Positions 21,791 to 61,943 are shown, numbered from the stretch's first letter. The stretch: DNA of 64,000 nucleotides from Alphaproteobacteria bacterium (GCA_965227455.1 OZ245752.1:5172822-5236821); one strand, 5' to 3'. The notes: generated by a model not told the origin, from the sequence alone. Translations and numbers: made by a program.

Positions 21791-22249
21791 ATGACCGGTT
21801 TTGACCTGTCTCCCCTGTTCCGTTCCACCGTTGGCTTCGACCGCCTGTCGCGGGCGCTGGACACTGCGTTCCAGTCCGACGCGCGGGTCCAGGGCTACCC
21901 GCCCTACAACATCGAGAAGACCGGTGAGAACGACTACCGCATCACCATGGCCGTCGCCGGCTTCGGCGAGGACGACATCGAGGTCACCCAGGCCGAGAAC
22001 ACGCTCGTCGTGCGCGGCAAGGTCGAAAAAGAGGAAGAGCAGGGCCGCGTCCTGCATCGCGGCATTGCCGCGCGCAGCTTTGAGCGGCGCTTCCAGCTTG
22101 CCGACTATATCGAGGTCCGCGAAGCCAATCTGGTGAACGGGATGCTGCATATCAGCTTGGTGCGCGAGGTTCCCGAGGCCATGAAGCCGCGGACCATCGC
22201 CATCGGCAGTGCCGCCCCGGCGCAGATCGAGTCGCGCAAGGCCGCGTAA
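21791..22249 (+). CDS. Hsp20 / alpha-crystallin family small heat-shock protein
   Basis: ACD core (YPPYNIEKTGENDYRITMAVAGFGEDDIEV ... LHISL). A strong SD (AAAGGAGGA) precedes the ATG. Confidence 0.9.
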   Translation: MTGFDLSPLFRSTVGFDRLSRALDTAFQSDARVQGYPPYNIEKTGENDYRITMAVAGFGEDDIEVTQAENTLVVRGKVEKEEEQGRVLHRGIAARSFERRFQLADYIEVREANLVNGMLHISLVREVPEAMKPRTIAIGSAAPAQIESRKAA

Positions 22250-22411
22250 ATCCGAACCATCTTATTGCGGTAAAGACAGGAGGCGGCGCTCCGGTTCGGC
22301 GCGCCGTTTTCCGCCGCATATGCGAAGAGACGGCCTCGCAACGGAAGTAAGAATCTGATCCTAACGCGAAGTCTGAAAAGTTACGCCACTAATTGGCGAT
22401 CATATAGGCAA

Positions 22412-22446
22412 GAAAAAAGGGGCGCCTGCGGCTGGCCCCTTTTTTG
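22412..22446. terminator. GC-rich hairpin flanked by an A-run and a T-run (bidirectional rho-independent terminator)
   Basis: AAAAAAGGGGCGCC..GGCTGGCCCCTTTTTT, read directly from the sequence. It lies downstream of hsp20. Confidence 0.5.
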
Positions 22447-22563
22447 AATTCTTGTTTTTGCCTCACCTGCTCAACCCGAGCAAGGGCTGCACACTATGGT
22501 TACATTTTTGCGACGTCAAGCCGAATTTGTGGTTAACCCACGGAGTTGCCAGGGATTTTGCGC

Positions 22564-22593
22564 AAAAAAAAGAGCCGCCCAAAGGGACGGCTC
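22564..22593 (-). terminator. Rho-independent terminator on the minus strand (GAGCCGTCCCTTTGGGCGGCTC + T8)
   Basis: Reverse complement of AAAAAAAAGAGCCGCCCAAAGGGACGGCTC. It lies ~390 nt downstream of the stop of the 236-aa minus-strand gene. Confidence 0.5.
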
Positions 22594-22957
22594 AGGTTCA
22601 ACAGGGAGGCATCAACAAGAATCGGATCAATCAGAGACGGTACAACCGCCTAATCCGATAATGGTCAGCGTAGAGGCCATCCATTAAGGATTGGTTAACA
22701 GCCAAACTCTATTCCCGGCGGCCGATATCACGAACTCGTCACGCCCAGTAGCTCGCCGTTTATCCAGGATTCTCTAAGGAAATTTGGCCCGCGGGAACGT
22801 CCATTGCGGGCCCGTATGCCCGATGAACCGTTAGGATTCTCGGCGACGAAAAATACGAAAGGTAAGAAATTTCCTGAACCGATCCGGCAAGCTTCGCGCC
22901 AGATCATGTCACGGACACCAGGTCGACGCGGTCCGGCGGCGGACCGGCCGGAGCGAT

Positions 22958-23668
22958 TCAGCGGGCTCCCGCCATGATGTCCTCCTCCTTGAGGAATCCG
23001 GCCTTCTTGGTCCTGAAGATGACCTCGCCGTTGCGATAGACGACGCGGGTGCCATGCCGGTAGTCCTGTTCGCTGTTCTTGGTCGCCTTGCCCTTGATGT
23101 TGGGATTGGATTTGGTGACGTGGCCGATGACGTAGGAACCGGTCTTGCCGGCACTGTGCAGCAGCTTGGACACCACCTCCGCGATGTTGTCGGCGACAAC
23201 GGAAAACCCATCCTCGCCGGCAATGCTGCATCCATGGAACTGCACCCGGGCATTGCTGGCAAAGCGCGAGTAGTCGATGTCCGAGAACAGCTGCGACCGC
23301 GCGCCAAACGCATTCAGCTGGTCGCTGAAATACCCGCCGATATTGACACCCAGCTTGATCATCGTGCTGGTGGCGAAACCGCAATTGCGGTCGTCCTCGA
23401 CAGAGAAGTTCAGCGTGTAGGGCGTGCCGTGGCTGAGGATGTCCAGCGACTGGATCGAGCTCTCCTTCTGGGCGCCGATCTTCTTCACGATCGTGTCGGC
23501 GCAGTCGATCTTGATGAATTCGCCGGTCGCCGCGAAATTCTTGTAGTCCTTCTGGACGTTCTTGCCGGCGTGATAGAAGGCCCAGTTGTGGGCCTTGCCG
23601 GCCGGCCGTTCCGTGCCGTCATTGTTAATTTCGCGGGTTCCGCCATAGAAGATGAGACGCTTCGCCAT
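22958..23668 (-). CDS. Hypothetical 236-aa protein, no family recognised
   Basis: Clean ORF with moderate codon bias. GC is visibly lower than the neighbours. Flanked by AT-rich non-coding DNA and terminators. Confidence 0.5.
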   Translation of the reverse strand: MAKRLIFYGGTREINNDGTERPAGKAHNWAFYHAGKNVQKDYKNFAATGEFIKIDCADTIVKKIGAQKESSIQSLDILSHGTPYTLNFSVEDDRNCGFATSTMIKLGVNIGGYFSDQLNAFGARSQLFSDIDYSRFASNARVQFHGCSIAGEDGFSVVADNIAEVVSKLLHSAGKTGSYVIGHVTKSNPNIKGKATKNSEQDYRHGTRVVYRNGEVIFRTKKAGFLKEEDIMAGAR

Positions 23669-23812
23669 GGTGCCCTCGCATGCGAATTGATCAATGAAAA
23701 CAAATCGCTGGCCGGCGTTTGCCGAACGCCGGACGATGCCCGGGGCTATGATGGATCAGGATCGGCCGCCGGGGTGTGACGAAGCTCACACCCCAGGGGA
23801 AAGGGCTCCACG

Positions 23813-25705
<1,893 letters not shown>

Positions 25706-30113: not shown

Positions 30114-30234
30114 CCCCTCACCCTAACCCTCTCCCGCAAGGGGAGAGGGAATCCCAGCCGGCCCAGATCGGACTCCTCTCCCCTTGTGGGAGAGGAAGGG
30201 GCCCGCGGCGAAGCCGTGGGAAGGTGAGGGGGCT
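30114..30234. repeat. Family-B palindromic repeat element (CCCCTCACCC ... GGGAGAGGG ... CCCTCTCCC ... GGGTGAGGGGG), copy 1
   Basis: Nested inverted repeats. Five copies in the window share more than 80% of the core sequence. Confidence 0.8.
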
Positions 30235-32617: not shown

Positions 32618-32760
32618 CCCCTCACCCTCCCACGGCTTCGCCGCGGGTCCCTCCCTCTCCCGCGAGGGGAGAGGGGCAAGTAGCGCGCCGGCCCATTTGG
32701 TTCCCTCTCCCCTTGTGGGAGAGGGAGGGACCCGCGCGTCAGCGTGGGAGGGTGAGGGGT
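32618..32760. repeat. Family-B palindromic repeat element, copy 2
   Basis: Same core as 30114-30234. Confidence 0.8.
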
Positions 32761-33130: not shown

Positions 33131-33204
33131 GGCGGATGAGGGGAGTTGAACCCCCGACTCCAAGGTCCGTAGCCTTGTGCTCTTCCAATCTGAGCTACAT
33201 CCTG
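33131..33204 (-). tRNA. tRNA-Arg(ACG)-like sequence. Cloverleaf and anticodon loop CTACGGA are intact. The first two 5-prime acceptor nucleotides do not pair and overlap the CCA of the upstream tRNA-like gene.
   Basis: Reverse complement GGATGTAGCTCAGATTGGAAGAGCACAAGGCTACGGACCTTGGAGTCGGGGGTTCAACTCCCCTCATCCGCC, folded by eye. The 3-prime acceptor strand CATCCGC demands a 5-prime GCGGATG, but the sequence reads caGGATG. Confidence 0.5.
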
Positions 33205-33277
33205 GTTGCAATGGTGGGAATCGAACCCACGACCTCCGAGGCTATCCTCGGCGCTCTGCACGCTGAGCTACATTGCC
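33203..33277 (-). tRNA. tRNA-like sequence with an encoded CCA. It has an Ala-like overall architecture but an atypical 6-nt anticodon loop (GATAGC) and a G1-A72 mismatch; the isotype could not be assigned.
   Basis: Reverse complement GGCAATGTAGCTCAGCGTGCAGAGCGCCGAGGATAGCCTCGGAGGTCGTGGGTTCGATTCCCACCATTGCAACCA. D-arm, T-arm (GTGGGTTCGATTCCCAC) and acceptor stem fold by eye. Confidence 0.4.
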
Positions 33278-35963: not shown

Positions 35964-36110
35964 CCCCCTCACCCGCCCACGGCTTTGCCGCGGGTACCTC
36001 CCTCTCCCACCAGGGGAGAGGGGTATCAACAACGCGCCATGCGAATTGGCCCCTCTCCCCTTGCGGGAGAGGGAGGGACCCGCGCGATAGCGTGGGAGGG
36101 TGAGGGGGCT
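35964..36110. repeat. Family-B palindromic repeat element, copy 3 (between the AAA+ ATPase gene and the 439-aa gene)
   Basis: Same core as the other family-B copies. Confidence 0.8.
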
Positions 36111-36134: not shown

Positions 36135-38075
36135 CTAGCTCCCGGGGGACCCGAACCGGCGCCTTGCCTCGGTCTGCAGGCGCAGGTCGCGGACCATGCC
36201 GTCGATGGCGGATTCGTCGGAGACGTTGGCATAGCGCAGCTCGGCATCGGCGTAACGGTTGATCTCCTGCAGCACCATCTCATGGGTGATCGGATTCATC
36301 AGCTCTCCGATCATGCTGGACTTGGTGTCGTAGTCCTTGGCCAGGAACAGCTCCGGGTTTTCCATCCACTCATCCGGAAGTTCCACATCCATCGCCCGCA
36401 CCTTGATCGCATCGGTGATGTTCTTGATGGCGCGGCCGGTGAAGCGCTCGTCGACCTCCTGGATCGCCTTCAAATAGGCGCCCAGCTTGGCGATCGTGTC
36501 GAGCTTGCCGTGGCGCTTGTCGACCGCCTCCAGGATCGCCTCCAATTGCGGCTCCGCCGGACGGCTGTGCTTCTCATAGGACGCGGTGACCGCACGGCGC
36601 AGCTCCTGGGCCCCGTACAGATCGTGCTTGCCGACCGGGATCTTGTGATTGGAGCCCAGCAGCAGGTGCAGAATGTCGATGTAGTCGGCCTCGGTCTGCG
36701 GCCCGTCGACCAGGAAGCGGGCGCCGGCGCGCTGGCGCAGCGCATCATCGACGTTCTCCGGGTAGTTGGAGAACATGCCGAAGGAGCAGTTGCCGCGCAC
36801 CACCGTGTTGGCGCCGGCGAAGCTCTCCATCAGGACGGCGGTGATCTCCTGCTGGCCCGAGGATGACTGCCGGTCGCCGCGCCGGCCGGCGATCTGGTCG
36901 ATATCGTCGATGGTCCCGAGTCCGATGACATGCGGATCGAGCACGGTCTGGATGAACGACTTGGCGTTCTGCGCCGATTTTCCTTGGTAGGAGTCGATCG
37001 CCTCGCTGGACAGGTTCTCATAGCGGAACGGGTAGCCGGCGGCGTCGCTGTAGTCCTTCAGCAGCCCGGCCAGCATCTGGATCAGGGTGGTCTTGCCGGT
37101 GCCGGGCTTGCCGTCGCCCAGGAAGGTGAAGATGAAGCCGCCCAGCTCGACGAACGGGTTGAGCTGGCGGCTGAAATCATACGCCATCAGCATCTTGGCC
37201 AGCTTCAGGCATTGATGCTTGGCGATGTGGTTGCCGACGACCTCCTCCGGCTTCTTGAAGGTCATGGTCAGGGTCTGAGCCGCGGCGCGATGGGCCGGGG
37301 TGAACCCGTCGATCTGGAAATCGTCCGCCTCGACCCGGTAGGTGCGGGCGATGAAGGCGTCGAGATGGCGGGCGCCGGCGGCGCGCAATGCGATCTCCTT
37401 CATCAGGGTCTCGGCAAAGGCGTCGACCACCGCCGCCAGCTTGGCGTCGCTGTCTGCATGCAGGGCGACTTTGCGGTCCAAATCCCAGACCGCCCCCTTC
37501 AGCGCCGTGTTGGGATCGTCCAGTACGATCTCCTCAACGTCGCCCACCTCGATCTCCTGGATGTCCGGTTCGCCGCTGCCCCGGGTCAGGAAGCCCAGCA
37601 TGTTGGCGAAGGTGAACAGGGCGACGATGGAGGCGGCCGACAGCAGCTCGGAGAACTCCGCCTTCTGGGAGTCGGCCAGCCGGCCCTGCTTGTTCTGCTG
37701 CAGCATCTGCTGCAACGGGGTCAGCTCGGCGTAGAGCACGACCACCGCCTCGGCGACGGCGATGGCCCGCCGGGCGCTGCGCAGCACATGGGCCTGGATC
37801 TCGCTCTGCAGCGGATCCTCGTCATCCACCGTCTGGATTCGGGCCTCCAGCGACACTCCGGCGGATGGCGCGCTCGGCGTCGAGAGGCCCGGCGTGGTGG
37901 AGCGGAAGCGGCGACGGCCGGGGATGCCCGGCGACCGCCCGCGCGTTGCCGGCGCCCCCTCGACCGGCTTGCCGAAGCGCGGCGCGTAATCGAACCCGGC
38001 CAGCAGCTGATACGCTTGGGCGTAGTGCTTGCGGATATCGGATTCCTTGATCTCGATCAGCGATTGCACGGTCAT
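36135..38075 (-). CDS. AAA+ ATPase of the classical clade (CbbX/SpoVK-like P-loop GKPGTGKTT) with a ~300-aa N-terminal domain of unknown function
   Basis: Walker A (FTFLGDGKPGTGKTTLIQ), Walker B with DD instead of DE (GLGTIDDIDQI), sensor-1 / second region of homology (SNYPENVDDALRQRAGARF); 646 aa. Confidence 0.8.
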   Translation of the reverse strand: MTVQSLIEIKESDIRKHYAQAYQLLAGFDYAPRFGKPVEGAPATRGRSPGIPGRRRFRSTTPGLSTPSAPSAGVSLEARIQTVDDEDPLQSEIQAHVLRSARRAIAVAEAVVVLYAELTPLQQMLQQNKQGRLADSQKAEFSELLSAASIVALFTFANMLGFLTRGSGEPDIQEIEVGDVEEIVLDDPNTALKGAVWDLDRKVALHADSDAKLAAVVDAFAETLMKEIALRAAGARHLDAFIARTYRVEADDFQIDGFTPAHRAAAQTLTMTFKKPEEVVGNHIAKHQCLKLAKMLMAYDFSRQLNPFVELGGFIFTFLGDGKPGTGKTTLIQMLAGLLKDYSDAAGYPFRYENLSSEAIDSYQGKSAQNAKSFIQTVLDPHVIGLGTIDDIDQIAGRRGDRQSSSGQQEITAVLMESFAGANTVVRGNCSFGMFSNYPENVDDALRQRAGARFLVDGPQTEADYIDILHLLLGSNHKIPVGKHDLYGAQELRRAVTASYEKHSRPAEPQLEAILEAVDKRHGKLDTIAKLGAYLKAIQEVDERFTGRAIKNITDAIKVRAMDVELPDEWMENPELFLAKDYDTKSSMIGELMNPITHEMVLQEINRYADAELRYANVSDESAIDGMVRDLRLQTEARRRFGSPGS

Positions 38076-38100
38076 TCCAGTAGGTCCTTCATAACGCGGG

Positions 38101-39222
38101 TCAGCCCTGCTTCAGGACCAGCCCGTCCGGGCCGACGACATATTTCCGCAGCGGCCGAAGCTGCGGCGAATCCCGCTCGACCAGCCGCTGATAGGGGCGA
38201 TAGGGCAGGATCATGCCGCGCTCCAGCCGGGTGGCGCCGGCCTCCATCTCGTCATGGGCGTGCACGTCGATGTCGAAATCCTCGCTCTGGGTGCTGCCGA
38301 ACAGGCCGGAGCTGGTGGTCTTCGTCCCCTTCGAGCGCAGCGTCTCCACCGACCAGCAGAAGATCCAGTCCTGCTCCGATCCGGGCTCGGGTTCCGACAG
38401 CAGGTCCTGCACCACATCGGCATGGCGGGTGAAGCGGTTGGAATACATCGGCCCGAAATGGATGCGGCGCAGGCGCTTGGGGTGGACGTCGGGGAAATCC
38501 TTGTCGATGCCGCGGGCGATGGTCAGCAGCTTCAGGGTGGACAGCGATTGCGCCGTCACATGCTCCACCAGGCGCGGCCAGCGCCGCTCGTCGCCCAGCA
38601 GCGGCCGGTCGCCGGATTCTTCCAGGCCCAGCAGGTAGATGTTCGGCATGTTGCGGTGGCTGTCATAGACGGCCCAGCGCACCAGATAGGCGCGCCGGTC
38701 CGAGGACCGCTCGCCCACCTGCATGATGTCCGGCGCGTTCACCGGCAGATAAGGCGGACGCTCGGCCAGGATCTCGCAATAGATCCGCCGGCTCATCTGC
38801 GTTTGCAGCTTGCGCGGCATGCTGCGCCGGGTCAGCACGTGGTCCAGCATCTGGGCCTTGAGCATCCGGCGGGTCGGCAGGGTGGTCAGGATCCGGTTCG
38901 CCTCGTCCAGATCGATGCCGAGCTGCAGGAATTCCTGGAACACCGGATAGCCGGAATCGCTGCGGTCGATGGTCAGCCCGGCCGCCGCCTTGCCGCCGGG
39001 CTGCACCCGCCGGTAACGGGCCGACAGGGCCGCAAAGCTGGTCCGGAGCCGGTCCAGGTAGTCGTCGATTCCGGTGCGCTCCAGCAGTGAAAGCGCGCCC
39101 TTGCGCTCCGCCGCGATCAGCTCGACCGGGTTGGCGCGGCAGCGCGCGATGATGTCGACGAAGGTGCTGAAATAGCTGCGACGGGCCTCGCGGTCGTCGA
39201 TGACAAGGCTGGTACCGGGCAC
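38101..39222 (-). CDS. Hypothetical 373-aa protein; no family recognised
   Basis: Clean ORF, 25-bp gap to the ATPase gene, same strand. Confidence 0.6.
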   Translation of the reverse strand: MPGTSLVIDDREARRSYFSTFVDIIARCRANPVELIAAERKGALSLLERTGIDDYLDRLRTSFAALSARYRRVQPGGKAAAGLTIDRSDSGYPVFQEFLQLGIDLDEANRILTTLPTRRMLKAQMLDHVLTRRSMPRKLQTQMSRRIYCEILAERPPYLPVNAPDIMQVGERSSDRRAYLVRWAVYDSHRNMPNIYLLGLEESGDRPLLGDERRWPRLVEHVTAQSLSTLKLLTIARGIDKDFPDVHPKRLRRIHFGPMYSNRFTRHADVVQDLLSEPEPGSEQDWIFCWSVETLRSKGTKTTSSGLFGSTQSEDFDIDVHAHDEMEAGATRLERGMILPYRPYQRLVERDSPQLRPLRKYVVGPDGLVLKQG

Positions 39223-39282
39223 GGGCGGCTGTCCGTTCGCCGTCAGCGCTGCAAGGATCTCCGGCGGGTCGGAACGGCCATG

Positions 39283-40359
39283 CTAATTCGCCCCGCCATA
39301 GAGGTTGGCGTCATGTTTCTCCACGACCTTGGCGAAGCGGCGGGCAAAGCGCTCATCCGCCTTGGCCTTCTCCTCCAGCACCTTGCGGGCGAAGACGATG
39401 TTGTCCTCGTGGCCTTCCATCATGTCGGCGATGCGCGACTGGGTGGCCGAGCCGATCGCCGCCATGGCGACCTGCGCCTCCTTGTCGGTCTCGGTGCCGA
39501 TCTCGTTGATCTTGTGGGCGACTTCCTGCTGCTGGGCAGTCTTCAGCGACTTGGTCAGGGCGTCGTACAGCACCACCCGCTGCTTGGTGTCGGTCTGCAG
39601 CTTGTTGATCAGGACCATCTGGGTCGCCGCCTGGTTCTGCAGCGAATCCATCCAGGTCTTGCCCTTCTCGATATAGGTCTCCAGCGTCTGCGACCGGGCG
39701 ATCAGGACCTGCTCGTTCTGCACCAGCTCGTTGTGCTGGGTGTTGATCGCCGCCAGCTCGGATTCGAGCTTGGTGCGCTCGGCGGGGTCGGTGGCCATGG
39801 AGACGCGGTTCTCAAGATCGATGATCTTGGGGTCCAGCGCCTGCAATTCGGCCCGCAGCCCCTCGAGCTCGCCGACCACCCGCTCGCGCTCGTCCAGGGT
39901 GCGGGTCAAATTGCCCTCGACCTTGGTCTTCTGCTCGCTGAGACTGGACAACTGCCCCTGCAGGATCGAGACGATGGTGTTGGACTTGGCGATCAGGTCC
40001 TGAAGATTGTCGTCGATGCTGGCGAAACGGATGCGTTCCGCCCTCATGGTGTCGGCGCGGGCGGTGGAGAACCAGCCGACCACCGTCTCCCAGCCGGTCT
40101 TCTCCCGCATGGAGTTGAATTCCTTGGAGAAACCGGCGGTGACCTCGTCCAGGCTGATGATCAGCTCGGCGATGTTGCCGTTCATCGATTCCGCATGCGC
40201 GTCGACCTGCTCCAGGGTCGCATTCTCGATGTCGATGGCCAGGGTGTCGGTCTTGGCGAGATCGACGCCCGTAAAGGTGGTTGAGATTGCGGCGGCCTGC
40301 TTCTGCGCCTCCGCGACCTGGGCTTCGGCATTGCGAACAGCGGTCTCGAAATCCTGCAT
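39283..40359 (-). CDS. All-alpha coiled-coil protein, 358 aa (TelA/PspA-like in composition only)
   Basis: Heptad-rich Q/E/L/A/K composition throughout; first gene of the cluster. Confidence 0.6.
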   Translation of the reverse strand: MQDFETAVRNAEAQVAEAQKQAAAISTTFTGVDLAKTDTLAIDIENATLEQVDAHAESMNGNIAELIISLDEVTAGFSKEFNSMREKTGWETVVGWFSTARADTMRAERIRFASIDDNLQDLIAKSNTIVSILQGQLSSLSEQKTKVEGNLTRTLDERERVVGELEGLRAELQALDPKIIDLENRVSMATDPAERTKLESELAAINTQHNELVQNEQVLIARSQTLETYIEKGKTWMDSLQNQAATQMVLINKLQTDTKQRVVLYDALTKSLKTAQQQEVAHKINEIGTETDKEAQVAMAAIGSATQSRIADMMEGHEDNIVFARKVLEEKAKADERFARRFAKVVEKHDANLYGGAN

Positions 40360-40548: not shown

Positions 40549-42180
40549 ATGGCGGCCAAGAGCAACCCATTCGAATCCGGCCTGGACCGGAACGCGGCCA
40601 ATTACGTGCCGCTGTCGCCATTGTCCTTTCTGCCGCGCACCGCCTCGGTGTTTCCCGACCGCACCGCCGTCATCCATGGCGAATTGCGCCGAACCTGGCG
40701 GCAGACCTATGACCGCTGCCGCAGGCTGGCCTCGGCCCTGGCCCGGCGGGGCGTCGGGCTCGGCGACACGGTTGCCGTGATGGCGGCCAATTCGCCGGAG
40801 CTGATGGAGGCGCATTTCGGCGTGCCGATGGCCGGCGGGGTGCTCAACGCCCTGAACACCCGCCTGGACCCGGCGACCATCGCCTTCATCCTGGAGCATG
40901 GCGAGGCCAAGGTGCTGATCGCCGACCGGGAATTCTCCGCCACGGTCGCCGCCGCCCTGGGACAGATGGATGCCCGGCCGCTGGTGATCGACATCGACGA
41001 CCCGCTGGCCACCGGCGGCGAATTGCTGGGCGAGATGGATTACGAGGCCTTCCTGGACACCGGCGATCCGGATTTCGCCTGGGACCTGCCGGCCGATGAA
41101 TGGCAGGCGATCGCGCTCAACTACACCTCGGGCACCACCGGCAATCCCAAGGGCGTCGTCTACCACCATCGTGGCGCCTACATGAACGCGGTCGGCAATG
41201 TGCTGACCTGGGCGCTGCCGCATCATCCCACATATCTGTGGACGCTGCCGATGTTCCACTGCAATGGCTGGTGCTTCCCCTGGACCGTTACCGCCATGGC
41301 CGGCACCCATGTCTGCCTGCGCCGGGTCGAGGCCAAGGCGATCTATGACGCCATCGCCGACCACAAGGTCACCCATCTCTGCGGCGCGCCCATCGTCATG
41401 GGCCTGCTGCTCAACGCGCCGGAGGACCAGCGCCGGAATTTCGACCATCCGGTGCACATGATGACGGCCGCTTCGGCGCCGCCGGCCGCGGTGCTGGAGG
41501 GCATGGCCGGCCTCGGCTTCGACATCACCCATGTCTACGGCCTGACCGAGGTCTACGGCCCCGCCACGGTCTGCGCCTGGAACGAGGAGTGGAACGCCCT
41601 GCCGCCGGCCGAGCAGGCGACCCACAAGGCGCGCCAGGGCGTCACCTATCCGGTCCAGGAGGGCCTGATCGTCGCCGATCCGGAAACGATCGTGCCGGTC
41701 CCGCCAGATGGCGAAACCATCGGCGAGGTTTTCATGCGCGGCAACATCACCATGAAGGGGTATCTGAAGAATCCCACCGCCACCGAGACCGCCTTCGCCG
41801 GCGGCTGGTTCCACACCGGCGATCTCGGCGTGATGCACCCCAACGGCTATATCGAGCTCAAGGACCGCTCCAAGGACATCATCATCTCCGGCGGCGAGAA
41901 CATCTCGACCATCGAGGTCGAAGGCGCCCTCTACCGCCACCCCGCCGTCCTGGAGGCCGCCGTCGTCGCCAAACCCGACGACAAATGGGGCGAAACCCCC
42001 TGCGCCTTTGTCACCCTGAAACCCGGCGCCGAGACCACCGAAGCCGACATCATCGCCTTCTGCCGCGACCACCTGGCCCATTTCAAATGCCCGAAGACGG
42101 TGGTGTTCGGCGACCTGCCGAAGACATCCACGGGCAAGATCCAGAAATTCGTGCTGCGGGAGAAGGCCAAGGGCCCATAG
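40549..42180 (+). CDS. AMP-dependent acyl-CoA synthetase/ligase (medium/long-chain fatty-acid--CoA ligase-like)
   Basis: AMP-binding motifs (YTSGTTGNPKGV; GWFHTGDLG; GKIQKF). The start is at the ATG preceded by GGGGGAGGA. Confidence 0.85.
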   Translation: MAAKSNPFESGLDRNAANYVPLSPLSFLPRTASVFPDRTAVIHGELRRTWRQTYDRCRRLASALARRGVGLGDTVAVMAANSPELMEAHFGVPMAGGVLNALNTRLDPATIAFILEHGEAKVLIADREFSATVAAALGQMDARPLVIDIDDPLATGGELLGEMDYEAFLDTGDPDFAWDLPADEWQAIALNYTSGTTGNPKGVVYHHRGAYMNAVGNVLTWALPHHPTYLWTLPMFHCNGWCFPWTVTAMAGTHVCLRRVEAKAIYDAIADHKVTHLCGAPIVMGLLLNAPEDQRRNFDHPVHMMTAASAPPAAVLEGMAGLGFDITHVYGLTEVYGPATVCAWNEEWNALPPAEQATHKARQGVTYPVQEGLIVADPETIVPVPPDGETIGEVFMRGNITMKGYLKNPTATETAFAGGWFHTGDLGVMHPNGYIELKDRSKDIIISGGENISTIEVEGALYRHPAVLEAAVVAKPDDKWGETPCAFVTLKPGAETTEADIIAFCRDHLAHFKCPKTVVFGDLPKTSTGKIQKFVLREKAKGP

Positions 42181-42264
42181 GACAACGGTAGGGCGGCCGG
42201 GGCGGGCCGCCGTAAGCATGACACCTGGCGCCCTAGCCGCTGCCCACGGGCGTCATTGCGCACG

Positions 42265-43167
42265 CTATGTGGTGATAAACCCGACCTCCGAATACAGCTT
42301 CTCTTCGATGTGCCGCCATTTGGTATTCATGAGGATCGAGTCGAGTTGCCCGGGTTGGTCCGCGGCACTGTCGACCCGTTGCCGAAGTTCGTCCGTGTCC
42401 GGGACCTCGTCCACGACCCTTGCGAAATAGACCTTCGTTGCCAGCGGCCTGGACGTCTCATCGCTCAGTATCGAGAGGATGCCGTACAGATCCGGGTGCT
42501 CCGTCTCGCCGACCGGAGAAAAGTTGACCAGCCATAATCCCTTGTTGGGGGCGGGCAGCCCAAGCATCTGGAAGCCATAGATGCTCCCGAAGAACAATCC
42601 CCGAAAGGTGATGACGGTACCCTCGTTCATATCGAGGGCCCCCCGGATCGCAACGACCTCCGCCGCCTTGGCGTAAGGCTCGAACGGCTTGATGGTGACC
42701 AACGAGGTGATGAGCCTGCCGGAGACCTCATGCCGGTACCCGATGAACCGGCCACTGAACTTCCTGCGGCTGGACTCCTGGTCGCCCAGTTCCATCAGCG
42801 ACGTGAACTCGCGAAAGAACTGCGCCTGCCGATCCCGAACATCGGGCAGGCTCGGCCGATCCTTCCGGTCGCGCGCCGACTCGCTGTACTCGCCGAAGAT
42901 AGACTTAGTAGCCTCTGGATAATTTGAGAGAAGATAGAAATAGAAACGCTGATCGAAATTGGCGCGAAAAAACGAATACAGACTCGCCGCTTCTCTGGGC
43001 TTAAGGCTCTGAAGCGGGTTCTTCTTTCGTGTAAAGTAACTCCATCTGTTTTCTGCCTGAGCCCCAAGATCCACTTGATCTCGAACAAACTCCTTCTTCG
43101 TACCTGTTATCGCACAGTAGACGTTCACCAATTCTCGAAGCAGGTCCGCCTCCGACCCGGCCCCCAT
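42265..43167 (-). CDS. Hypothetical 300-aa protein in a low-GC islet; no family recognised
   Basis: Clean ORF. AT-rich codon usage, unlike its neighbours. Confidence 0.5.
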   Translation of the reverse strand: MGAGSEADLLRELVNVYCAITGTKKEFVRDQVDLGAQAENRWSYFTRKKNPLQSLKPREAASLYSFFRANFDQRFYFYLLSNYPEATKSIFGEYSESARDRKDRPSLPDVRDRQAQFFREFTSLMELGDQESSRRKFSGRFIGYRHEVSGRLITSLVTIKPFEPYAKAAEVVAIRGALDMNEGTVITFRGLFFGSIYGFQMLGLPAPNKGLWLVNFSPVGETEHPDLYGILSILSDETSRPLATKVYFARVVDEVPDTDELRQRVDSAADQPGQLDSILMNTKWRHIEEKLYSEVGFITT

Positions 43168-43419
43168 TCTGCAATCTCCCGCTTATGCACAGCCTCCTTT
43201 TACACTAAACTGTAATCGCTTCATCCTGCCATGAAAAGTTTCTTTTTGAAGCAGTTAAGGCGCCTCGGGTATGGTAATCAGACCGATGAACTTTATCATG
43301 TGTTGCGTGATAGCGGTGATGGGCGCGGTATTTGATTGCTCATAACTCTCCGCACTCTAGAAGTTTTTTTTGGATCTATATCACGTTCGTGAGTTTTCTC
43401 TTTGCAGATTGGAGCAAGT

Positions 43420-44464
43420 AATGGAACGCCAAGAATTGATGGCCATTGCATTTAGAATGTCCACTGGAAAAAGTGAAGGGGAAATAGAAGTCGACGAGGA
43501 GGTTGGAAGCAAGATATTTTCATTTATGAATAATATACCATTGAATGTAATCGATGAAATAAAAGCAGCGCCTGCGCTGGATGTATTTCCTGTCACTTCA
43601 ACAGAAATATTTGGTGAGAAAATACTGAAAGTAGATCAGCTGCTACTTGATGTCGGCGCTGTTCTAGAGCTTTCAGCATTAGACGAGGATTTCTTAGCTA
43701 TAGTTGCGAAGGAAATTCGATTTCGTGCTCCTGAAGAGCGAGCAATAATTCGAAGGCAATTTACTGGCGTTGATGCGGGCACAGGGGCAAACGGAGCTCG
43801 AGGGCGCGATGGCCAGACTCCTGGGAAAGCGCCTAGAAAGAACAATGGACATCGAGGGGAGGACGGCGGTTCAGGCGGCTCTGGGAATGCAGGTGAAACG
43901 CGACATCTTCCGGATATCTATGTTTTCACTAACGCGATCAAGGAGATAGATAGAAATGACCCGCCATATTTCGTCGACATGGGACTCATTATGCCCGGCA
44001 TTGATGGTGGAGACGGCGGTATTGGCGGCGATGGAGGCAATGGCGGAAACGGTGGGAGTGGCGGAGACGGTGTCGACAGCCTAATCGACTGCAAAGGCGG
44101 GCCTGGAGACGGAGGCCGAGGTGGAAATGCTGGTCTAGGCGGTCGAGGAGGTGATGCCGGCAATGGGGGTGACGGAGCCAACGTCATTTACGTTGCATCG
44201 CCGGATGCGATGAATCTGCTGTCGGCCACTAAGGTTGTTAATAGACCGGGACAGGCTGGACGGCCGGGGCTCGGAGGGAGGCCGGGACGCGAAGGTGCCG
44301 GCGGACCAAGGGGGGGCAGGACGTTCTACTGTCATGGCGGTAGACGCGGATCAGACGGAGTTGTGCCCAACCCATGGACCCTCGGACCGGGTGAAGAAGG
44401 TGAAGGGGGGAAAAAGGGATCGGTCAGTCGGGTTCCTGTTGTTTCGATCGATGACTTGTATTGA
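43420..44464 (+). CDS. Glycine-rich protein with collagen-like G-X-Y and GGX repeats, no signal peptide
   Basis: Acidic ~130-aa N-terminal domain, then GANGARGRDGQTPGKAP ... GGDGGIGGDGGNGGNGGSGGDG ... GRPGLGGRPGREGAGGPRGG. The start is set at the ATG preceded by GGAG; the ORF track begins at 43370. Confidence 0.5.
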
Positions 44465-52919: not shown

Positions 52920-53390
52920 TCAGAACGAGGACGACGGTCGTCGGGCAGTGGCCCTTGGATTGCGTGGACAGCCGACGAGCAGCCAATAGACCAGCCCGGC
53001 GACGGCACCCATCAGGGAGAAGGTGGCAAGTTGATACAATATTGTGCCGAGTGGGACGGCGGGCGAATAGATGAAGACGAATGAGAGGGCTGGGCCCAGG
53101 AATGCGCCAAGACAGGTCTCGCCGATACCTCGCGGAACTCGTGTCCGGAGCAGGATCGCGGCCGCCAACAGCACAGGGAGCAGACAGAATACCGCAATGA
53201 CCAATGCGATGACCGGGAGCAGGCCGAGATAGTCCGTCGTGAAGCCGGAGGATTCGAATATCGCATCCAGGAGAAACATCATGGTCGCGGCCGCAAGGCA
53301 GGCAACGCAATAGGCGAAGAGAGGGCGTCCAATCGCCGACCAGGCTGTTTGCAGGTGGCTGAAGTCATAGGTCTGCATGGCGATCTCCAA
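52920..53390 (-). CDS. Hypothetical 4-TM membrane protein (paralogue 2)
   Basis: LRTRVPRGIGETCLGAFLGPALSF resembles LTRVPRGYAEACAGALIGLAFSV of its neighbour. Confidence 0.4.
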   Translation of the reverse strand: MEIAMQTYDFSHLQTAWSAIGRPLFAYCVACLAAATMMFLLDAIFESSGFTTDYLGLLPVIALVIAVFCLLPVLLAAAILLRTRVPRGIGETCLGAFLGPALSFVFIYSPAVPLGTILYQLATFSLMGAVAGLVYWLLVGCPRNPRATARRPSSSF

Positions 53391-56243: not shown

Positions 56244-56780
56244 GTGCAATCCATGAAGCTGACGAGAATCCTGGCCGTGCTCGGCGCGGCATTCCTGCTG
56301 GCCGGCTGCGAGGAGACCCTCGACGACCAGATGACCGAGTACATGGAGTTCTATTACCCCTCCACGGGCGCGTACTGGTACGACATCGCCTTCGATTGGG
56401 GCAGCTATCTGATCACCACCCACGAGAAGCTCGACGAAGAGGTGCATCCGGACAGCGAGCGGTTCCGGGGTTACGTCACTCTGCGGCCGACCGTGACGGC
56501 GCCGAGCGAGGACCTCGATCCCAAGCTCTTCCTGATCAGCCCGCAAGGTGAGGTCTGGAGCCTCCATCGGTCGGTCGACATCGCCAAATCCACCTCGCGC
56601 GAGGAGGTGACCGTGGAGCGCGTGCAGGGTGGCACCATGACCCAGACCCGCACCGTCAATTCCGAGAGCGAGCCGGTGATCGACCATTTCCTCGCCAACC
56701 CCTCCGCCTGGCGCCGCTACGGCACCATGGTCGCCGATGGCGACGAGTACGAGTTGGAGCGCCTGGAGGCAGGCGGCTGA
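56244..56780 (+). CDS. Hypothetical lipoprotein
   Basis: Lipobox (ILAVLGAAFLLAGC); 178 aa; no family recognised. Confidence 0.5.
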   Translation: MQSMKLTRILAVLGAAFLLAGCEETLDDQMTEYMEFYYPSTGAYWYDIAFDWGSYLITTHEKLDEEVHPDSERFRGYVTLRPTVTAPSEDLDPKLFLISPQGEVWSLHRSVDIAKSTSREEVTVERVQGGTMTQTRTVNSESEPVIDHFLANPSAWRRYGTMVADGDEYELERLEAGG

Positions 56781-57432: not shown

Positions 57433-59682
57433 CTACCGCTGGTCGAGCTTAAGCTCGATCCGGCGGTTGCGCAGGAAGGCGGCGGCAGTATTGGCCGGGT
57501 CCAGGGGCTGGAATTCGCCGAAGCCGGCTGCCGCCAGGCGCTGCGGTGGAATGCCCTGCTGGATCAGGAATTGCACCACCTGGGTGGCCCGCGCGGTCGA
57601 CAACTCCCAGTTCGACGGATAGATCGAGCGAGGCCCGACCGGCACCCGGTCCGTGTGCCCGTCGACCCGCAGGATCCAGTCGACCTCGTCGGGAATGTCG
57701 CGGGCGATCTCCAGCAGTGTGCCGGCGAAGCGGGCCAGCTGCTCCTTGCCGCCGGGCTGCAAGGTGGCGAAGCCGGACGGGAAGAGCACTTCCGATTGGA
57801 ATACGAAGCGGTCGCCGACGACGCGGATATCGTCGCGCTGGCCGATCACCTCGCGCAGCCGGCCGAAGAATTCCGAGCGGTAGCGGCTCAGCTCCTCGAC
57901 CCGGCGCACCAGGGCCTGGTTCAGCCGGGCGTTCAGGTTGGCAATCTCGATGTCGCGCTCGCCGACCGAGGCTTCCGACGCTTCCAACTGCGCCTGCACC
58001 TGGGCCAGCTGGTCGCGCAGGCTCTGGATCTGGTCGTTGAGCCGGGCGACCAGGGCGCGGGATTCGGTCGACAGGCGGACCTCTTCCTCCAGGGCGGCCT
58101 CGGTGGTCCCGAGCGCCGTCAGCAGCTCCTCGATGCGGATGTCGCGGTCGTCGATCTCGCGCTGCGCCAGGGTGGTGCGCTCCTCGGCATCGCTCAGGGA
58201 GGTCTCCAGCGCCAGGCTGCGGTCGCGCAGCGCGGCCAGCTCCTGCATCAGCCGGTCGCGCTCCTCGATGGTCAGCCGCAACTCGACGGTCAGGGCGCTG
58301 GCCTGCTCGGCCGCTGCATCCAAGGCCGTCGCCGTTTCATCTCGGGCCGCGGCGGCGGCATCGCGTTCTTCCGTCAGCGTGCCGATGGCGACTTCCCGGG
58401 ACGCCAGCAGGTCGCGAAGCTGCAGGATCTCCTCGTCGCTGATGCGCAGACGGTTGGTCAGCTCGCTCTCGCTGGCCTGGGAGGCCGCCAGCGCCTCGGC
58501 CAAGGCCAACTGCTCACCCTGCAGGGCCTGCAGCTCGGCGCGGATGCCGGCGATATCGGCCTCGCGATCCTCCAGCGAGGTCATCAGCAGGCGGTTGTCC
58601 GAGCGGCTTTCTTCCAGCGCCGCGGTGAGGGTATCGATATCCGCCTGGCTCAGTTCCAGGGACGCGATCGCCTCGGCGCGTTCGCGGCCGGTGGTCTCCA
58701 ATTCGGCCCGGAGATCGGCCAGGGTGGCGTCGCGCTCCTCAAGCGACACGGTCAGCGTAGCGTTGTTCGCCCGGGCCTCCTCCAGCGCCGCGGTCAGTGT
58801 ATCAATATCGGCCTGGCTCAGCTCCAGCGCCGCGACCGCCTCGGCGGTCTCCTGCCGACTGGCCTCCAGGGCCGCCTCCAGCTCCGCCAGGGTGGCGTTG
58901 CGGTCCTCCAAGGTCGCGGTCAGGGTCGCGTTGTCGGCCTGGCTCTCCTCCAGCGCTGCCGTCAGCCGGTCGATGTCGCCCTGGCGCAATTCCAGGGTGG
59001 CGACCAGCTCCTCGTTCTCCGCCCGGCTCTCGGCCAGCTGCTGCTCCAGAAGCGCCTGCAGCGACAGCGCCTCGTCCAGGGAGACGCCAAGCGCCTCCGC
59101 CTCCGCTTCCGCCGCCCGCAGCAGCAGGGTCATGGAGGCGATCTCGATCTCCAGCGTGTCGCGCGCGGCGCGCAGCGCCTGGATATCGGCCTGCAGGCTG
59201 GCGATCTCCCGCAGCCTGAGCTCGATCGTCTCGCGGTCGGCGTCGATGGTCTGGTAGGCGTCGGCCAGTTCGGCCTCGATGGCGGCGACGTCTTCGGCCA
59301 GGGCTTCGCGGCTGGCCAGCGCATCCGCCAGACGCTGCGACAGCGACAATTGCTCGGCCTGCAGCGCGCCGATCTCCTCGCCCAGCGCGTCGCGCTCGCC
59401 GATGATGCCCTGCAATTCGGCGGAGAGCTGCGCGTAGCTGGCGCGCAGATCGGCGTTTTCGGACCGCTCCAGCCCCAGCAGCTCGTTCAGCTCGCTGATC
59501 TGACGGTTCAGCCGCTCCACCATCTCCTCGCGGCCGGACAGCGCGTTGGACAGGTAGAACTGCGCCACCATGAAGACCATCAGCACGAAGATGACCACCA
59601 TCAGCAGCGCCGCCAGGGCATCGACGAAGCCCGGCCAGATGTTGATGCTGCGATGGCTGGAACGGCGCGAGACAGCGAACAT
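57433..59682 (-). CDS. MotB-like protein: N-terminal TM anchor, ~550-aa periplasmic coiled coil with internal repeats, C-terminal OmpA/MotB peptidoglycan-binding domain
   Basis: TM (IWPGFVDALAALLMVVIFVLMVFMV), reiterated ALE...LSQADIDTLTAALEE.R.NNATLT blocks, and an OmpA-like C-terminus (RVDGHTDRVP ... NRRIELKL). Confidence 0.8.
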   Translation of the reverse strand: MFAVSRRSSHRSINIWPGFVDALAALLMVVIFVLMVFMVAQFYLSNALSGREEMVERLNRQISELNELLGLERSENADLRASYAQLSAELQGIIGERDALGEEIGALQAEQLSLSQRLADALASREALAEDVAAIEAELADAYQTIDADRETIELRLREIASLQADIQALRAARDTLEIEIASMTLLLRAAEAEAEALGVSLDEALSLQALLEQQLAESRAENEELVATLELRQGDIDRLTAALEESQADNATLTATLEDRNATLAELEAALEASRQETAEAVAALELSQADIDTLTAALEEARANNATLTVSLEERDATLADLRAELETTGRERAEAIASLELSQADIDTLTAALEESRSDNRLLMTSLEDREADIAGIRAELQALQGEQLALAEALAASQASESELTNRLRISDEEILQLRDLLASREVAIGTLTEERDAAAAARDETATALDAAAEQASALTVELRLTIEERDRLMQELAALRDRSLALETSLSDAEERTTLAQREIDDRDIRIEELLTALGTTEAALEEEVRLSTESRALVARLNDQIQSLRDQLAQVQAQLEASEASVGERDIEIANLNARLNQALVRRVEELSRYRSEFFGRLREVIGQRDDIRVVGDRFVFQSEVLFPSGFATLQPGGKEQLARFAGTLLEIARDIPDEVDWILRVDGHTDRVPVGPRSIYPSNWELSTARATQVVQFLIQQGIPPQRLAAAGFGEFQPLDPANTAAAFLRNRRIELKLDQR

Positions 59683-59727
59683 AGGTCAGATGGCCATTCG
59701 CCGGTGCGAATGAAGCGGGTTCCTAAG

Positions 59728-59866
59728 CCCCCTCACCCTCCCGCTACGCGGGTCCCTCCCTCTCTCGCAAGGGGAGAGGGGCAACAAAGATTGCGCGCTA
59801 CCTATCCCCTCTCCCCTTGCGGGAGAGGGAGGGACCCGCGCGTCAGCGTGGGAGGGTGAGGGGGCT
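59728..59866. repeat. Family-B palindromic repeat element, copy 5 (between the MotA-like and MotB-like genes)
   Basis: Same core as the other family-B copies. Confidence 0.8.
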
Positions 59867-59903
59867 TCGAAAATCACTTCGGGGTTGCCCGTCCGACTCC
59901 GCT

Positions 59904-61055
59904 TTACTGCGTCTCTTCGGCCAGCGCCGCGATGGTGCGGGCCAGGAGTTTGATCTCGCCTCGGATCTCGCCAATGATCTGGTCGCGGCTGGACGGCAGA
60001 TCGTCCATCAGCCGGTGCATGTAGACGTCCAGATTGCGCACGTGCTGGCGGGTGGATTCGTCCAGCAGCAGGCCGCCATCGCTCATCCCGTCGGCCAGCT
60101 TGGTCAGCACCGGCTTCAACTCCATCTGGCTCTCCGCCAGCCGGATCATCAGGTTCTGCTCGGTGCGCATCTGGTCGGTCAGGGTGCCCAGCCGCTCGGT
60201 CAGCGCCATCAGATTGGCGTTGCCCTGTTTTCGGTTCTCCTCGCCCTGGCTCATCACCCGGCGCAGGGTGTCCAAGTTTTCCGCCGTTTGCTCGATCAGC
60301 GCCTGCAGATAGGCCGGGACGCTGCCCTCGCCCTCGCCGGTGAAGGCGCCGCCGGTGGTCACCCGGGCGGCGCCGGACAGCCAGTCCTCCAGGTCGTTGT
60401 AGAAGCGGTTCTGGGCCTGGGTCGCCTGCAACTCGAGAAAACCGAGGACCAGGGAGCCGGCCAGGCCGAACAGCGACGAGCTGAAGGCGGTGCCCATGCC
60501 GCCCAGCGGCGCCTCCAGCCCGGCTTTCAGGTCGCCGAACACCAGGGCCAGGTCGCCCCCTTCTATGCTGAGCCCGGCGATAACGTCGGCCACCGCCGCG
60601 ATGGTCTTCAGCAGGCCCCAGAAGGTGCCAAGCAGACCGAGGAAGATCAGCATGCCGATCAGGTAGCGCGACATCTCGCGGTTCTCGTCCAGCCGGGCGT
60701 GGATGCCGTCCAGCAGCGACCGCATGGACATGGCCGTCAGGCGGAGCTGGCCCTGCTGCTCGCTCAGCATCTTGGCCATCGGGCCGAGCAGGCGCGGCGG
60801 CGGTGCCACCGTCTCCCGCTGTTCCGCGTCCCGGGACGCCTGGAATTGCTCCATCCAGGCCGCCTCCGGTCGCAGCACCATCACCGAACGCACGGTGTAG
60901 ACGACGCCGACCAGGAACAGCAGCACGATCAGGCCGTTCAGCCACGGATTGGCCAGGAAGGCCTGCGCTACGCCGACCCAGAGCACCCCGGCCACGCCAG
61001 CCACGAAGGCCAGGCAGACCGCCATTCTGAACAGATACGGCGTAAAGCGGATCAT
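59904..61055 (-). CDS. MotA/TolQ/ExbB-family proton-channel protein with a ~150-aa C-terminal coiled-coil extension
   Basis: TM helices and the MotA/TolQ/ExbB core (LIGMLIFLGLLGTFWGLL ... GGMGTAFSSSLFGLAGSLVLGFL); 383 aa. Confidence 0.8.
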   Translation of the reverse strand: MIRFTPYLFRMAVCLAFVAGVAGVLWVGVAQAFLANPWLNGLIVLLFLVGVVYTVRSVMVLRPEAAWMEQFQASRDAEQRETVAPPPRLLGPMAKMLSEQQGQLRLTAMSMRSLLDGIHARLDENREMSRYLIGMLIFLGLLGTFWGLLKTIAAVADVIAGLSIEGGDLALVFGDLKAGLEAPLGGMGTAFSSSLFGLAGSLVLGFLELQATQAQNRFYNDLEDWLSGAARVTTGGAFTGEGEGSVPAYLQALIEQTAENLDTLRRVMSQGEENRKQGNANLMALTERLGTLTDQMRTEQNLMIRLAESQMELKPVLTKLADGMSDGGLLLDESTRQHVRNLDVYMHRLMDDLPSSRDQIIGEIRGEIKLLARTIAALAEETQ

Positions 61056-61115
61056 GCGGGATCTCTGGTTGCGCTGTCGGTGCCGGATGGCGTGCGGGGC
61101 ATCAACGGGTCGACA

Positions 61116-61943
61116 TCAGTTGATCAGCAGCAGGTCGACGCGTTCCGGCGGGCCCTCGATCGAGGTGTTGCCCAGGGCGCGCACATCGATCCGGCTGCCT
61201 CGCACGCCGCGGTCGAACAGGTAGTTGCGCACCGCAAGGGCGCGTTGCAGCGACAGCAGCCGGGCCCGGGAGGCGGTGTCGGGCGTGCCGCCGGCATAGG
61301 CCTGCACGCTGAGCCTGAGGTCGCTGTGCTCCGACATGCGCTCGGCCAGGGTGTCCAGCAGCCGCTCGCCGGTCTCGCTGAGCGCGGTGCGGTCGTCGGA
61401 GAACAGGATCCGGAAGCCGTCGCCGTTCGGTAGCGCCGAAATCGTGTCGGCGGTCGCCTCGACATCGACATTGGCGCCGACCAGCTTCTCGGACGGAGTC
61501 GGGCTCGGCGCCGTCGACCGGGCGCCCACCTGCCGCAGAAGTTCGGCTCCGGCGGTCACCGGTATCGGCCGTTGCCACAGCACCGGCGCGGTCGAGACCT
61601 CGGGAATCGGGACCACCGGCGCCAGCCGGCCGGATCCGGTCGGACGGGCCGCGGGAGCGGGTTCGGCGGCCGGCGCGGGTGCGGCAGTGGGTGCCGCCAG
61701 GACCCGGCGCGGCCGTATCGGCGGGGCCGGCGGCCGGTGGCCGGGAAGCGGCGGGACCCAGCCCGGGCCGGTTGGACCGTCCAGCGCATCTAGCACGCTC
61801 AGATCCACGAAGACCGCCGGGCGATCCGCCGCATGGGCACAAGGGGCGAGGGCAAGGACAAACGCCGTCAGCGCCGCTACAAGCGCGGTTCGAGACGACC
61901 GGCCCATCAGCCCGATCCGTGTTGAAATGTCAGAACCCACCAA
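61116..61943 (-). CDS. Secreted proline-rich protein with a C-terminal OmpA-like peptidoglycan-binding domain
   Basis: Signal peptide (ALVAALTAFVLALAPCAHA), a Pro/Ala-rich linker, and an OmpA-like C-terminus (LSVQAYAGGTPDTASRARLLSLQRALAVRNYL). Confidence 0.7.
   Translation of the reverse strand: MVGSDISTRIGLMGRSSRTALVAALTAFVLALAPCAHAADRPAVFVDLSVLDALDGPTGPGWVPPLPGHRPPAPPIRPRRVLAAPTAAPAPAAEPAPAARPTGSGRLAPVVPIPEVSTAPVLWQRPIPVTAGAELLRQVGARSTAPSPTPSEKLVGANVDVEATADTISALPNGDGFRILFSDDRTALSETGERLLDTLAERMSEHSDLRLSVQAYAGGTPDTASRARLLSLQRALAVRNYLFDRGVRGSRIDVRALGNTSIEGPPERVDLLLIN

Follow-up and report, generated by a model that had tools for sequence, protein, structure and literature searches.

A putative MotA/MotB-like ion motor of Alphaproteobacteria, probably vertically inherited and distinct from flagellar, Tol, and Zorya systems

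We analyzed a stretch of 64,000 nucleotides from an alphaproteobacterium (Alphaproteobacteria bacterium, GCA_965227455.1 OZ245752.1:5172822-5236821; this whole stretch is hereafter called the window), in which three co-oriented genes on the minus strand encode an OmpA-like protein, a channel protein of the MotA/TolQ/ExbB type (A subunit), and a MotB-like protein (B subunit). The A/B pair probably belongs to a distinct family of ion motors of the 5:2 type that is neither flagellar nor Tol nor Zorya, is inherited vertically, and is widespread in Alphaproteobacteria. The trio had been outlined in a preliminary description made from the sequence alone, which took it for a non-canonical, Zorya-like stator module, and calling of open reading frames (ORFs) in the window confirmed all three genes (Table 1). 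Ortholog and synteny counts refer to 80 species-level related loci, mostly from Rhodospirillales and unclassified alphaproteobacterial metagenome-assembled genomes (MAGs) plus Sinorhizobium. Both the A and the B gene are complete in 76 of these loci, over which the lengths of B, the gene spacing, and the invariance of the channel aspartate were taken. All structure predictions are AlphaFold2 (AF2) monomers.

The A subunit has the fold shared by MotA, ExbB, TolQ, and ZorA, which is the first feature expected of a member of this superfamily. Its Foldseek probability against ExbB, TolQ, and ZorA is 1.0, and flagellar MotA, also found among the fold matches, is no nearer than the other three; by its predicted fold, the subunit thus appears equidistant from all four. 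Judged by the AF2 model and the hydrophobic segments, the protein would span the membrane with four transmembrane (TM) helices; it ends in a helical cytoplasmic tail (aa 216-383, about 170 aa) that is strongly conserved throughout, in agreement with the channel protein with a C-terminal tail that had been described. In the ortholog alignment the motifs GLLGTFWG and GMGTAFSxSxxGL are invariant, including T144, T189, and the G140-L148 block, as are some other residues. By motif resemblance, T144 and T189 may be the counterparts of T148 and T181 of ExbB, and thus candidates for a Thr/Ser ring in the last two TM helices of A that faces the B aspartate.

The B subunit has an N-terminus of the MotB/ExbD type, with a TM helix that carries an aspartate (Asp21) in the motif WPGFVD. 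This residue, which lies in the VDALAAL segment whose conservation had been named as a check on channel function, is invariant in WPGFVDALAAL across the 76 orthologs and in a further B alignment; an acidic residue at the cytoplasmic end of a single B TM helix is the second superfamily feature found here. A periplasmic helical/coiled-coil region of about 570 residues (aa 46-613) then leads to a peptidoglycan-binding domain of the OmpA/MotB type (aa 620-749; Pfam OmpA, 50.3 bits), and for this arrangement the AF2 model and Pfam bear out what had been read from the sequence. The domain retains the canonical GHTD...SNWELSxARA peptidoglycan-binding motif in the alignment, and the best PDB sequence matches of B are the peptidoglycan-binding domains of MotB, PomB, and MotS (E 6e-15 to 1e-11). 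Pfam scans of B orthologs returned, besides OmpA, only generic coiled-coil noise. In the AF2 model of B (predicted local distance difference test, pLDDT, 72.5), helices span aa 20-197, 205-339, and 370-613 and are followed by the OmpA fold at aa 620-749; these three long helices with two breaks have no reliable tertiary arrangement (predicted template modeling score, pTM, 0.33).

The coiled coil of B is conserved at its membrane-proximal (aa about 41-180) and OmpA-proximal (aa about 486-613) ends, and its middle is variable. The complete orthologs range from 331 to 749 aa (median 437), and lengths above 560 aa occur only in the window, in its close relative L002 (749 aa), and in L001 (693 aa), all of them Inquilinaceae. 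The excess length in Inquilinaceae is due to three 56-aa tandem repeats (aa 236-291, 292-347, and 348-403), which Tandem Repeats Finder (TRF) detected with a period of 168 bp, and the L001 ortholog falls short of the 749 aa by exactly one unit length. The great length of the coiled coil thus reflects a recent expansion, restricted to this lineage, of a segment which in all members is helical and variable, and it is no hallmark of the family. A profile of distribution and neighborhood showed a conserved core-genome context from Inquilinaceae to Sinorhizobium, but confined the long-coiled-coil architecture to Inquilinaceae.

In the third protein (275 aa), Pfam places an OmpA domain at aa 180-260 (46.9 bits). 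Its true start is probably M13, and its N-terminus is signal-peptide-like (MGRSSRTALVAALTAFVLALAPCAHA followed by AD), the signal being of the signal-peptidase-I type without a clear lipobox. A conserved post-signal motif, xVxVDLSVLD, and a low-complexity linker (aa 41-150; 24% Pro and 17% Ala) whose length varies between orthologs were also found, so that the picture of a secreted, Pro-rich OmpA-domain protein stands. In the alignments, GHTD is replaced by AYAGG, with loss of the canonical Asp, while ARRLSLSRALAVR is kept, which suggests that the peptidoglycan site is degenerate. The gene lies upstream of A in 67 of the 80 loci and is missing in S. meliloti; the protein represents a genuine conserved family.

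The genomic context of the motor genes is highly conserved. Over the 80 loci, the recurrent order is efp - suhB - OmpA-like gene - A - B - convergent ABC exporter, with rpmE beyond; SuhB was found in 59 loci, elongation factor P (EF-P) in 56, and the ABC exporter in 44, counts that are to be read in light of the many loci on incomplete contigs. Wherever both the A and the B gene are complete (76 loci), they lie side by side with little space between them. S. meliloti has suhB - A (368 aa, 42% identical) - B (342 aa) - ABC - rpmE in sequence and lacks the OmpA-like gene. In the window, rpmE also lies beyond the ABC gene, and the neighbors include a cytochrome bd oxidase, the ABC exporter, ribosomal protein L31, an acyl-CoA ligase, and an AAA ATPase. 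Where synteny is broken, the neighbors are unrelated metabolic genes according to Pfam scans of the flanks of five such loci. Over 55 species, with the window proteins as reference, A reaches a median identity of 57.5%, EF-P one of 57.7%, and SuhB one of 58.9%, and A evolves as slowly as EF-P. When the A protein was used to search mobile elements, the only matches among 72,556 plasmid records were five chromosome-sized (at least 3.5 Mb), non-mobilizable ones, and none was found among 50,697 phage records. Taken together, the conserved synteny, the EF-P-like identity, and the lack of mobile records point to a vertically inherited housekeeping module rather than a defense island. As a separate observation, locus L081 (S. 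meliloti CP090106.1), a 3.7 Mb record listed in PLSDB as 'plasmid pSymB', carries rpmE, purE/K, suhB, and the motor pair, and appears to be a mislabeled chromosome.

These results bear directly on the defense role that had been suggested at first. Here the pair would be a divergent Zorya-type anti-phage system, whose motor senses perturbation of the envelope by phage and passes the signal through its A tail to an effector whose gene lies elsewhere or is not yet recognized. Architecturally the two are alike, with a C-terminal helical tail on A and an OmpA-like peptidoglycan-binding domain on B, and ZorA chains are among the best fold matches of A. When five proteins were screened with the defense hidden Markov models (HMMs) of PADLOC, the only family-specific matches were ZorA and ZorB, besides which B matched LmuB and JetC weakly through its coiled coil. 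The A subunit matched ZorA1 (E 1.8e-11; aa 126-310, extending beyond the last TM helix into the tail) and ZorA3 (3.3e-11), and B matched ZorB3 (E 5.5e-22). However, the ZorA scores of 33-41 bits cover the models only in part, the A tail of about 170 aa compares with ZorA model lengths of 420-1063 aa, and the weak match of NCBIfam antiphage_ZorA_3 on the A tail remained at 15.2 bits, far below its cutoff of 250. Next to the pair in the window, PADLOC matched neither ZorC, D, E, F, or G nor any other model, and the lipoprotein, the peptidase, and other ORFs gave no Zor effector match; instead of the ZorC and ZorD, ZorE, or ZorF and ZorG of Zorya, the conserved neighbors are suhB, efp, and the ABC exporter. 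Even where synteny is broken, Pfam revealed no nuclease- or helicase-like effector in the flanks. Furthermore, the patchy, mobile distribution of Zorya is not seen, since the same housekeeping neighborhood extends from Inquilinaceae to Sinorhizobium and identity tracks that of EF-P and SuhB, which is the opposite of how defense islands behave, and phage and mobile plasmid records lack the A subunit. We therefore regard a Zorya-type defense system as very unlikely. The early remark that no ZorC/ZorD-like effector stands next to the pair agrees with PADLOC; the accompanying contrast, a long tail on the MotB side instead of on ZorA, is right about the length of the B coiled coil and overstated in that A is tailed as well.

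Another explanation is suggested by the product names 'flagellar motor protein MotA' and 'chemotaxis protein MotB' given to family members at NCBI, namely that the pair is an additional set of flagellar stators. Four TM helices in A, as suggested by the model, would be MotA-like, the peptidoglycan-binding domain of B is nearest in PDB to flagellar MotB, PomB, and MotS, and MotD (99 bits) is the best NCBIfam family for B after PRK09039. Nevertheless, B falls far under the cutoffs of the stator families (MotD 99 vs 283, MotS 76 vs 264, and MotB 54 vs 301 bits), and A has no NCBIfam match to MotA, PomA, or LafT at E≤0.01; its fold, as described above, is no closer to MotA than to the others. The large cytoplasmic TM2-TM3 domain of stators is replaced in the AF2 model by a segment of about 67 aa (aa 60-126) with two to three short helices, including 61-76 and 91-99, which corresponds to the condensed, non-flagellar 'GIT' type without a torque-generating interface in the scheme of PMC12505986. 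The absence of nearby flagellar, Tol-Pal, and TonB genes, as first reported for the window, extends over about 20 kb around the module and to the flanks examined in the 80 related loci. A family member in a Holosporales MAG also speaks against a stator. The canonical motA/motB/motC of S. meliloti belong to its flagellar regulon, and the pair is separate from them. Thus, it is quite unlikely that these proteins serve as flagellar stators.

A third possibility is that the Tol-Pal or Ton motor of this lineage has been rearranged, with the long helical B replacing TolA and the OmpA-like protein replacing Pal. ExbB and TolQ are among the best fold matches of A, a long periplasmic helix together with OmpA-like modules recalls the parts list of TolA and Pal, and the third protein has weak NCBIfam matches to Pal and other OmpA-family lipoprotein models. 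On the other hand, B carries an OmpA/MotB domain and no ExbD/TolR fold, and there is no NCBIfam match to TolQ, TolR, ExbB, or ExbD. Neither tolA, tolB, pal, cpoB, nor tonB is adjacent, and the third protein has a signal-peptidase-I-type signal, no clear lipobox, and no canonical peptidoglycan-binding Asp. Moreover, a separate, essential tolQRAB operon with pal-cpoB exists elsewhere in Alphaproteobacteria (PMC9275681), as it does in S. meliloti (PMC7327166). A rearranged Tol or Ton motor is accordingly given hardly any chance. The Rgs proteins of S. meliloti that interact with Tol-Pal were also considered as a possible identity of the pair and rejected, as the pair is not among them.

Members of the distinct motor family that we favor are numerous. 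Homologs of A form more than 8000 clusters at 90% identity, with 57-71% identity in the best 120 outside the lineage of the window. A profile search over 1.8 billion representatives yielded 910 clusters (50% identity) at E≤1e-30, with a stable length of about 370-400 aa. They occur in Inquilinaceae (the lineage of the window, with L002 being 96% identical), Skermanella, Azospirillum, Magnetospirillaceae, Acetobacteraceae, and Sphingomonadales, and further in Hyphomicrobium, Sinorhizobium, the Holosporales MAG, and the gammaproteobacterium Thiohalospira. With 448.3 bits against a cutoff of 305, the B subunit falls within the NCBIfam equivalog NF006543 (PRK09039.1-2, 'peptidoglycan-binding protein') and is thus a member of a catalogued family, whose name carries no functional information. 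Other names in the databases are 'flagellar motor protein MotA', 'MotA/TolQ/ExbB proton channel family protein', 'chemotaxis protein MotB', and 'hypothetical'; the B ortholog of S. meliloti 1021 (CAC47355, UniProt Q92JX6) is named 'Hypothetical protein signal peptide'.

The literature fits these generic names. No functional study of the A/B family was found in a search in which subscription journals were thinly covered, so that one may have been missed, and the initial suggestion that the pair is possibly uncharacterized is upheld. Surveys of 5:2 motors (PMC12505986, PMC12204202, and PMC9389320) cover MotAB, PomAB, AglRQS, ZorAB, SiiAB, TolQR, ExbBD, GldLM, and vWA-linked motors and leave the family unmentioned, and it is likewise not described in PMC12422006, PMC7327166, PMC9275681, PMC9731502, and PMC11369160. 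According to PMC12204202, more 5:2-type systems are still to be discovered.

By analogy with MotAB, ExbBD, TolQR, and ZorAB, five A subunits would surround two B helices, and ion flow past Asp21 of B would turn the A ring relative to B. A periplasmic coiled coil, whose length varies, would carry at its end the OmpA domain of B, and through this domain B would be fixed to the cell wall. The bundled, conserved tails of A (170 residues each) would extend into the cytoplasm and probably serve as the output, similar to short ZorA tails. The third protein may act as an accessory periplasmic partner in most lineages, with Rhizobiaceae managing without it. As for function, a housekeeping role in the envelope, in which the motor couples or monitors the inner membrane and peptidoglycan, is the leading candidate, though we propose it only tentatively. 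A more specific and rather doubtful idea is that the family is the housekeeping counterpart, and possibly the evolutionary source, of Zorya motors, with the B dimer and a rotating A tail reporting or maintaining the state of membrane and wall.

Several points weigh against the proposal of a distinct motor family with an envelope role. The 80 loci were found with peptide patterns taken from the window protein, which biases them toward relatives that are at least 50% identical. Pfam MotA_ExbB stays below its threshold on the A protein of the window (20.7 vs 22.9 bits), a family profile of A retrieves no A-subunit in PDB by sequence, and the AF2 models of A and B are only moderately confident (pLDDT about 73 for both; pTM 0.53 and 0.33, respectively). 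The 5:2 stoichiometry, rotation, and ion specificity are putative, and neither a conserved partner gene nor a phenotype or regulatory clue turned up that would speak for the inferred envelope role. A published characterization may have escaped our search. In addition, the geometry of anchoring is in question. At 0.15 nm per residue, the median coiled coil of about 260 residues would extend to about 39 nm and that of the window to about 85 nm, far more than the gap between inner membrane and peptidoglycan, so the helix must fold back or run laterally. Speculatively, the conserved ends and variable middle of B would fit a hairpin with a free apex length.

Every characterized 5:2 branch (MotAB, ExbBD, TolQR, GldLM, and ZorAB) powers a different major process. 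Were the family indeed the housekeeping counterpart of Zorya, the flagellar, Tol, Ton, gliding, and defense motors would be joined by a further class of ion-driven envelope machine with a function of its own, and, because of its class-wide conservation, the motor might have been present in the alphaproteobacterial lineage ancestral to mitochondria. A possible new envelope function would concern a bacterial class with major symbionts and pathogens. Thousands of members carry generic or misleading names, and assignment of a role would correct a widespread annotation error and provide an evolutionary reference for Zorya. The role can be tested in genetic models, as Sinorhizobium carries the operon and Azospirillum probably does.

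In the window, the gap between A and B measures 221 bp, compared with 4-31 bp in most relatives, because a palindromic element of about 190 bp, resembling repetitive extragenic palindromes (REP) or miniature inverted-repeat transposable elements (MITE), has been inserted. The insertion is lacking in the nearest relative, L002 (96% identical), and is a lineage-specific feature that forms no conserved part of the system; the idea that A and B are separate units on account of the gap was rejected on this ground. The repeat consists of paired motifs (CCCTCTCCCnnnnGGGGAGAGGG; 15 matches vs 0 expected) and occurs at four intergenic sites of the window (Table 1). As RNA, it forms a predicted hairpin of -158 kcal/mol (z -12.6) and could attenuate the expression of B relative to A. 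Scans for promoters and terminators gave nothing beyond shuffle expectation.

Table 1. Positions of the motor genes, their parts, and other features in the window
Feature	Position	Strand	Basis
Accessory secreted OmpA-like protein, 275 aa	61116-61943	-	ORF, Pfam OmpA, alignments
OmpA-like protein, probable true start (M13)	61907	-	
OmpA-like protein, motif xVxVDLSVLD	about 61785-61823	-	
OmpA-like protein, C-terminal OmpA-like domain	about 61119-61436	-	
A subunit, 383 aa	59904-61055	-	HMMs, alignment, AF2 model, fold matches
A subunit, membrane part (four TM helices suggested)	about 60411-61055	-	AF2, hydrophobic segments
A subunit, cytoplasmic tail	about 59907-60410	-	
A-B intergenic region with palindromic insertion	59683-59903	-	Comparison with L002
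B subunit, 749 aa	57433-59682	-	NF006543, invariant Asp, AF2 model, PDB matches to MotB/PomB
B subunit, TM helix with Asp21	about 59548-59634	-	
B subunit, helical/coiled-coil region	about 57844-59547	-	
B subunit, three tandem 56-aa repeats	58474-58977	-	TRF and alignment by eye
B subunit, 168-bp period	58605-58965	-	TRF
B subunit, peptidoglycan-binding domain	57436-57825	-	Pfam OmpA
Palindromic repeat sites	30127-30196; 32653-32725; 36000-36073; 59700-59890		Paired motifs
Papain-like cysteine protease, C70 (AvrRpt2-like), 88 bits	56895-57413	+	Pfam
Lipoprotein, lipobox LLAGC, no Pfam match	56244-56780	+	ORF
Paralogous small membrane proteins, 152 and 156 aa	52377-52835; 52920-53390	-	
ORFs in low-GC stretch	42265-43167	-	
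ORFs in low-GC stretch	43370-44464	+	
AAA ATPase (646 aa) and following ORFs	36135-40359	-	
Two head-to-tail tRNA genes	33131-33277	-	

Next to the B gene, a peptidase and a lipoprotein had been put forward as the missing partners of the motor. The peptidase was found in none and the lipoprotein in one of the 80 related loci, and this phyletic absence rules them out; the site that they occupy, flanked by B and a flavodoxin-like gene, is variable. The peptidase had been called C39-like, and Pfam assigns it to C70. Its motifs NMSCWYAS and GHAIVLTG resemble the catalytic Cys and His motifs of papain-like enzymes. Both genes belong to an insertion that is specific to this strain and unrelated to the motor, and they might form a toxin/immunity-like pair.

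Some other features of the window were also observed. Between rpmE and the ABC exporter lie the tandem paralogous small membrane proteins, which share TRVPRG... and G(R/C)P(E/R)NP(K/R)A; the one that was scanned has no Pfam family. The AAA ATPase has a weak PADLOC match to TRIP13 (E 2e-6) and is followed by ORFs of 373 and 358 aa, which belong to no Pfam or PADLOC family and adjoin a copy of the palindromic repeat. The GC content falls to 0.53 at 42000-44000 and to 0.59 at 22000-24000, compared with a background of 0.65-0.70, and these stretches may have been acquired horizontally. Of the two tRNA genes, which have no spacer between them, one is tRNA-Arg(ACG), and the tRNA-like gene preceding it (Rfam, 48.5 bits) was reported by ARAGORN as 'tRNA-???' with an abnormal anticodon loop.

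Compared with known systems, the family combines features that are otherwise found apart. At the sequence level, the nearest characterized system is ZorAB (PDB 8qyd and 8vvn), whose HMMs give the best family-specific matches for A and good ones for B, and which has in common with the pair the TM Asp and the OmpA-like peptidoglycan-binding domain of B. The family differs in that its B subunit contains a periplasmic coiled coil of 170-570 residues, for which ZorB models of 215-254 positions have no room, that Zorya tails of several hundred residues exceed the A tail, and that the family has neither Zor effectors nor a variable island. Within PRK09039 (NF006542-NF006546), the B subunit of the window is a true member above the NF006543 cutoff; the model has 350 positions and the family typically 340-470 aa, and the 749 aa of the window result from repeat expansion. 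With MotAB, PomAB, and MotCD, the pair shares adjacent A and B genes, the Asp in the B TM helix, the canonical OmpA/MotB domain, and the suggested four TM helices, whereas A has a long extra C-terminal tail and B has a long coiled coil instead of a short plug and linker. Like TolQR-TolA-Pal and ExbBD-TonB, it would couple an inner-membrane motor to a long periplasmic helix and OmpA-like peptidoglycan modules, but the helix and the peptidoglycan domain are fused onto B rather than divided between TolA and Pal, and TolB and TonB are absent. The third protein is similar to Vibrio MotY (weak NCBIfam match, E 0.007), a secreted periplasmic protein with a C-terminal OmpA-like domain beside an A/B motor; it differs by the lack of the N-terminal domain of MotY and of a flagellar context, by its own VDLSVLD motif and Pro-rich linker, and by the loss of the Asp. 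The mixture of a ZorA-like tail on A, a MotB-type anchor beyond a long and variable coiled coil, and a degenerate OmpA-like accessory protein is unseen in the characterized systems compared here.

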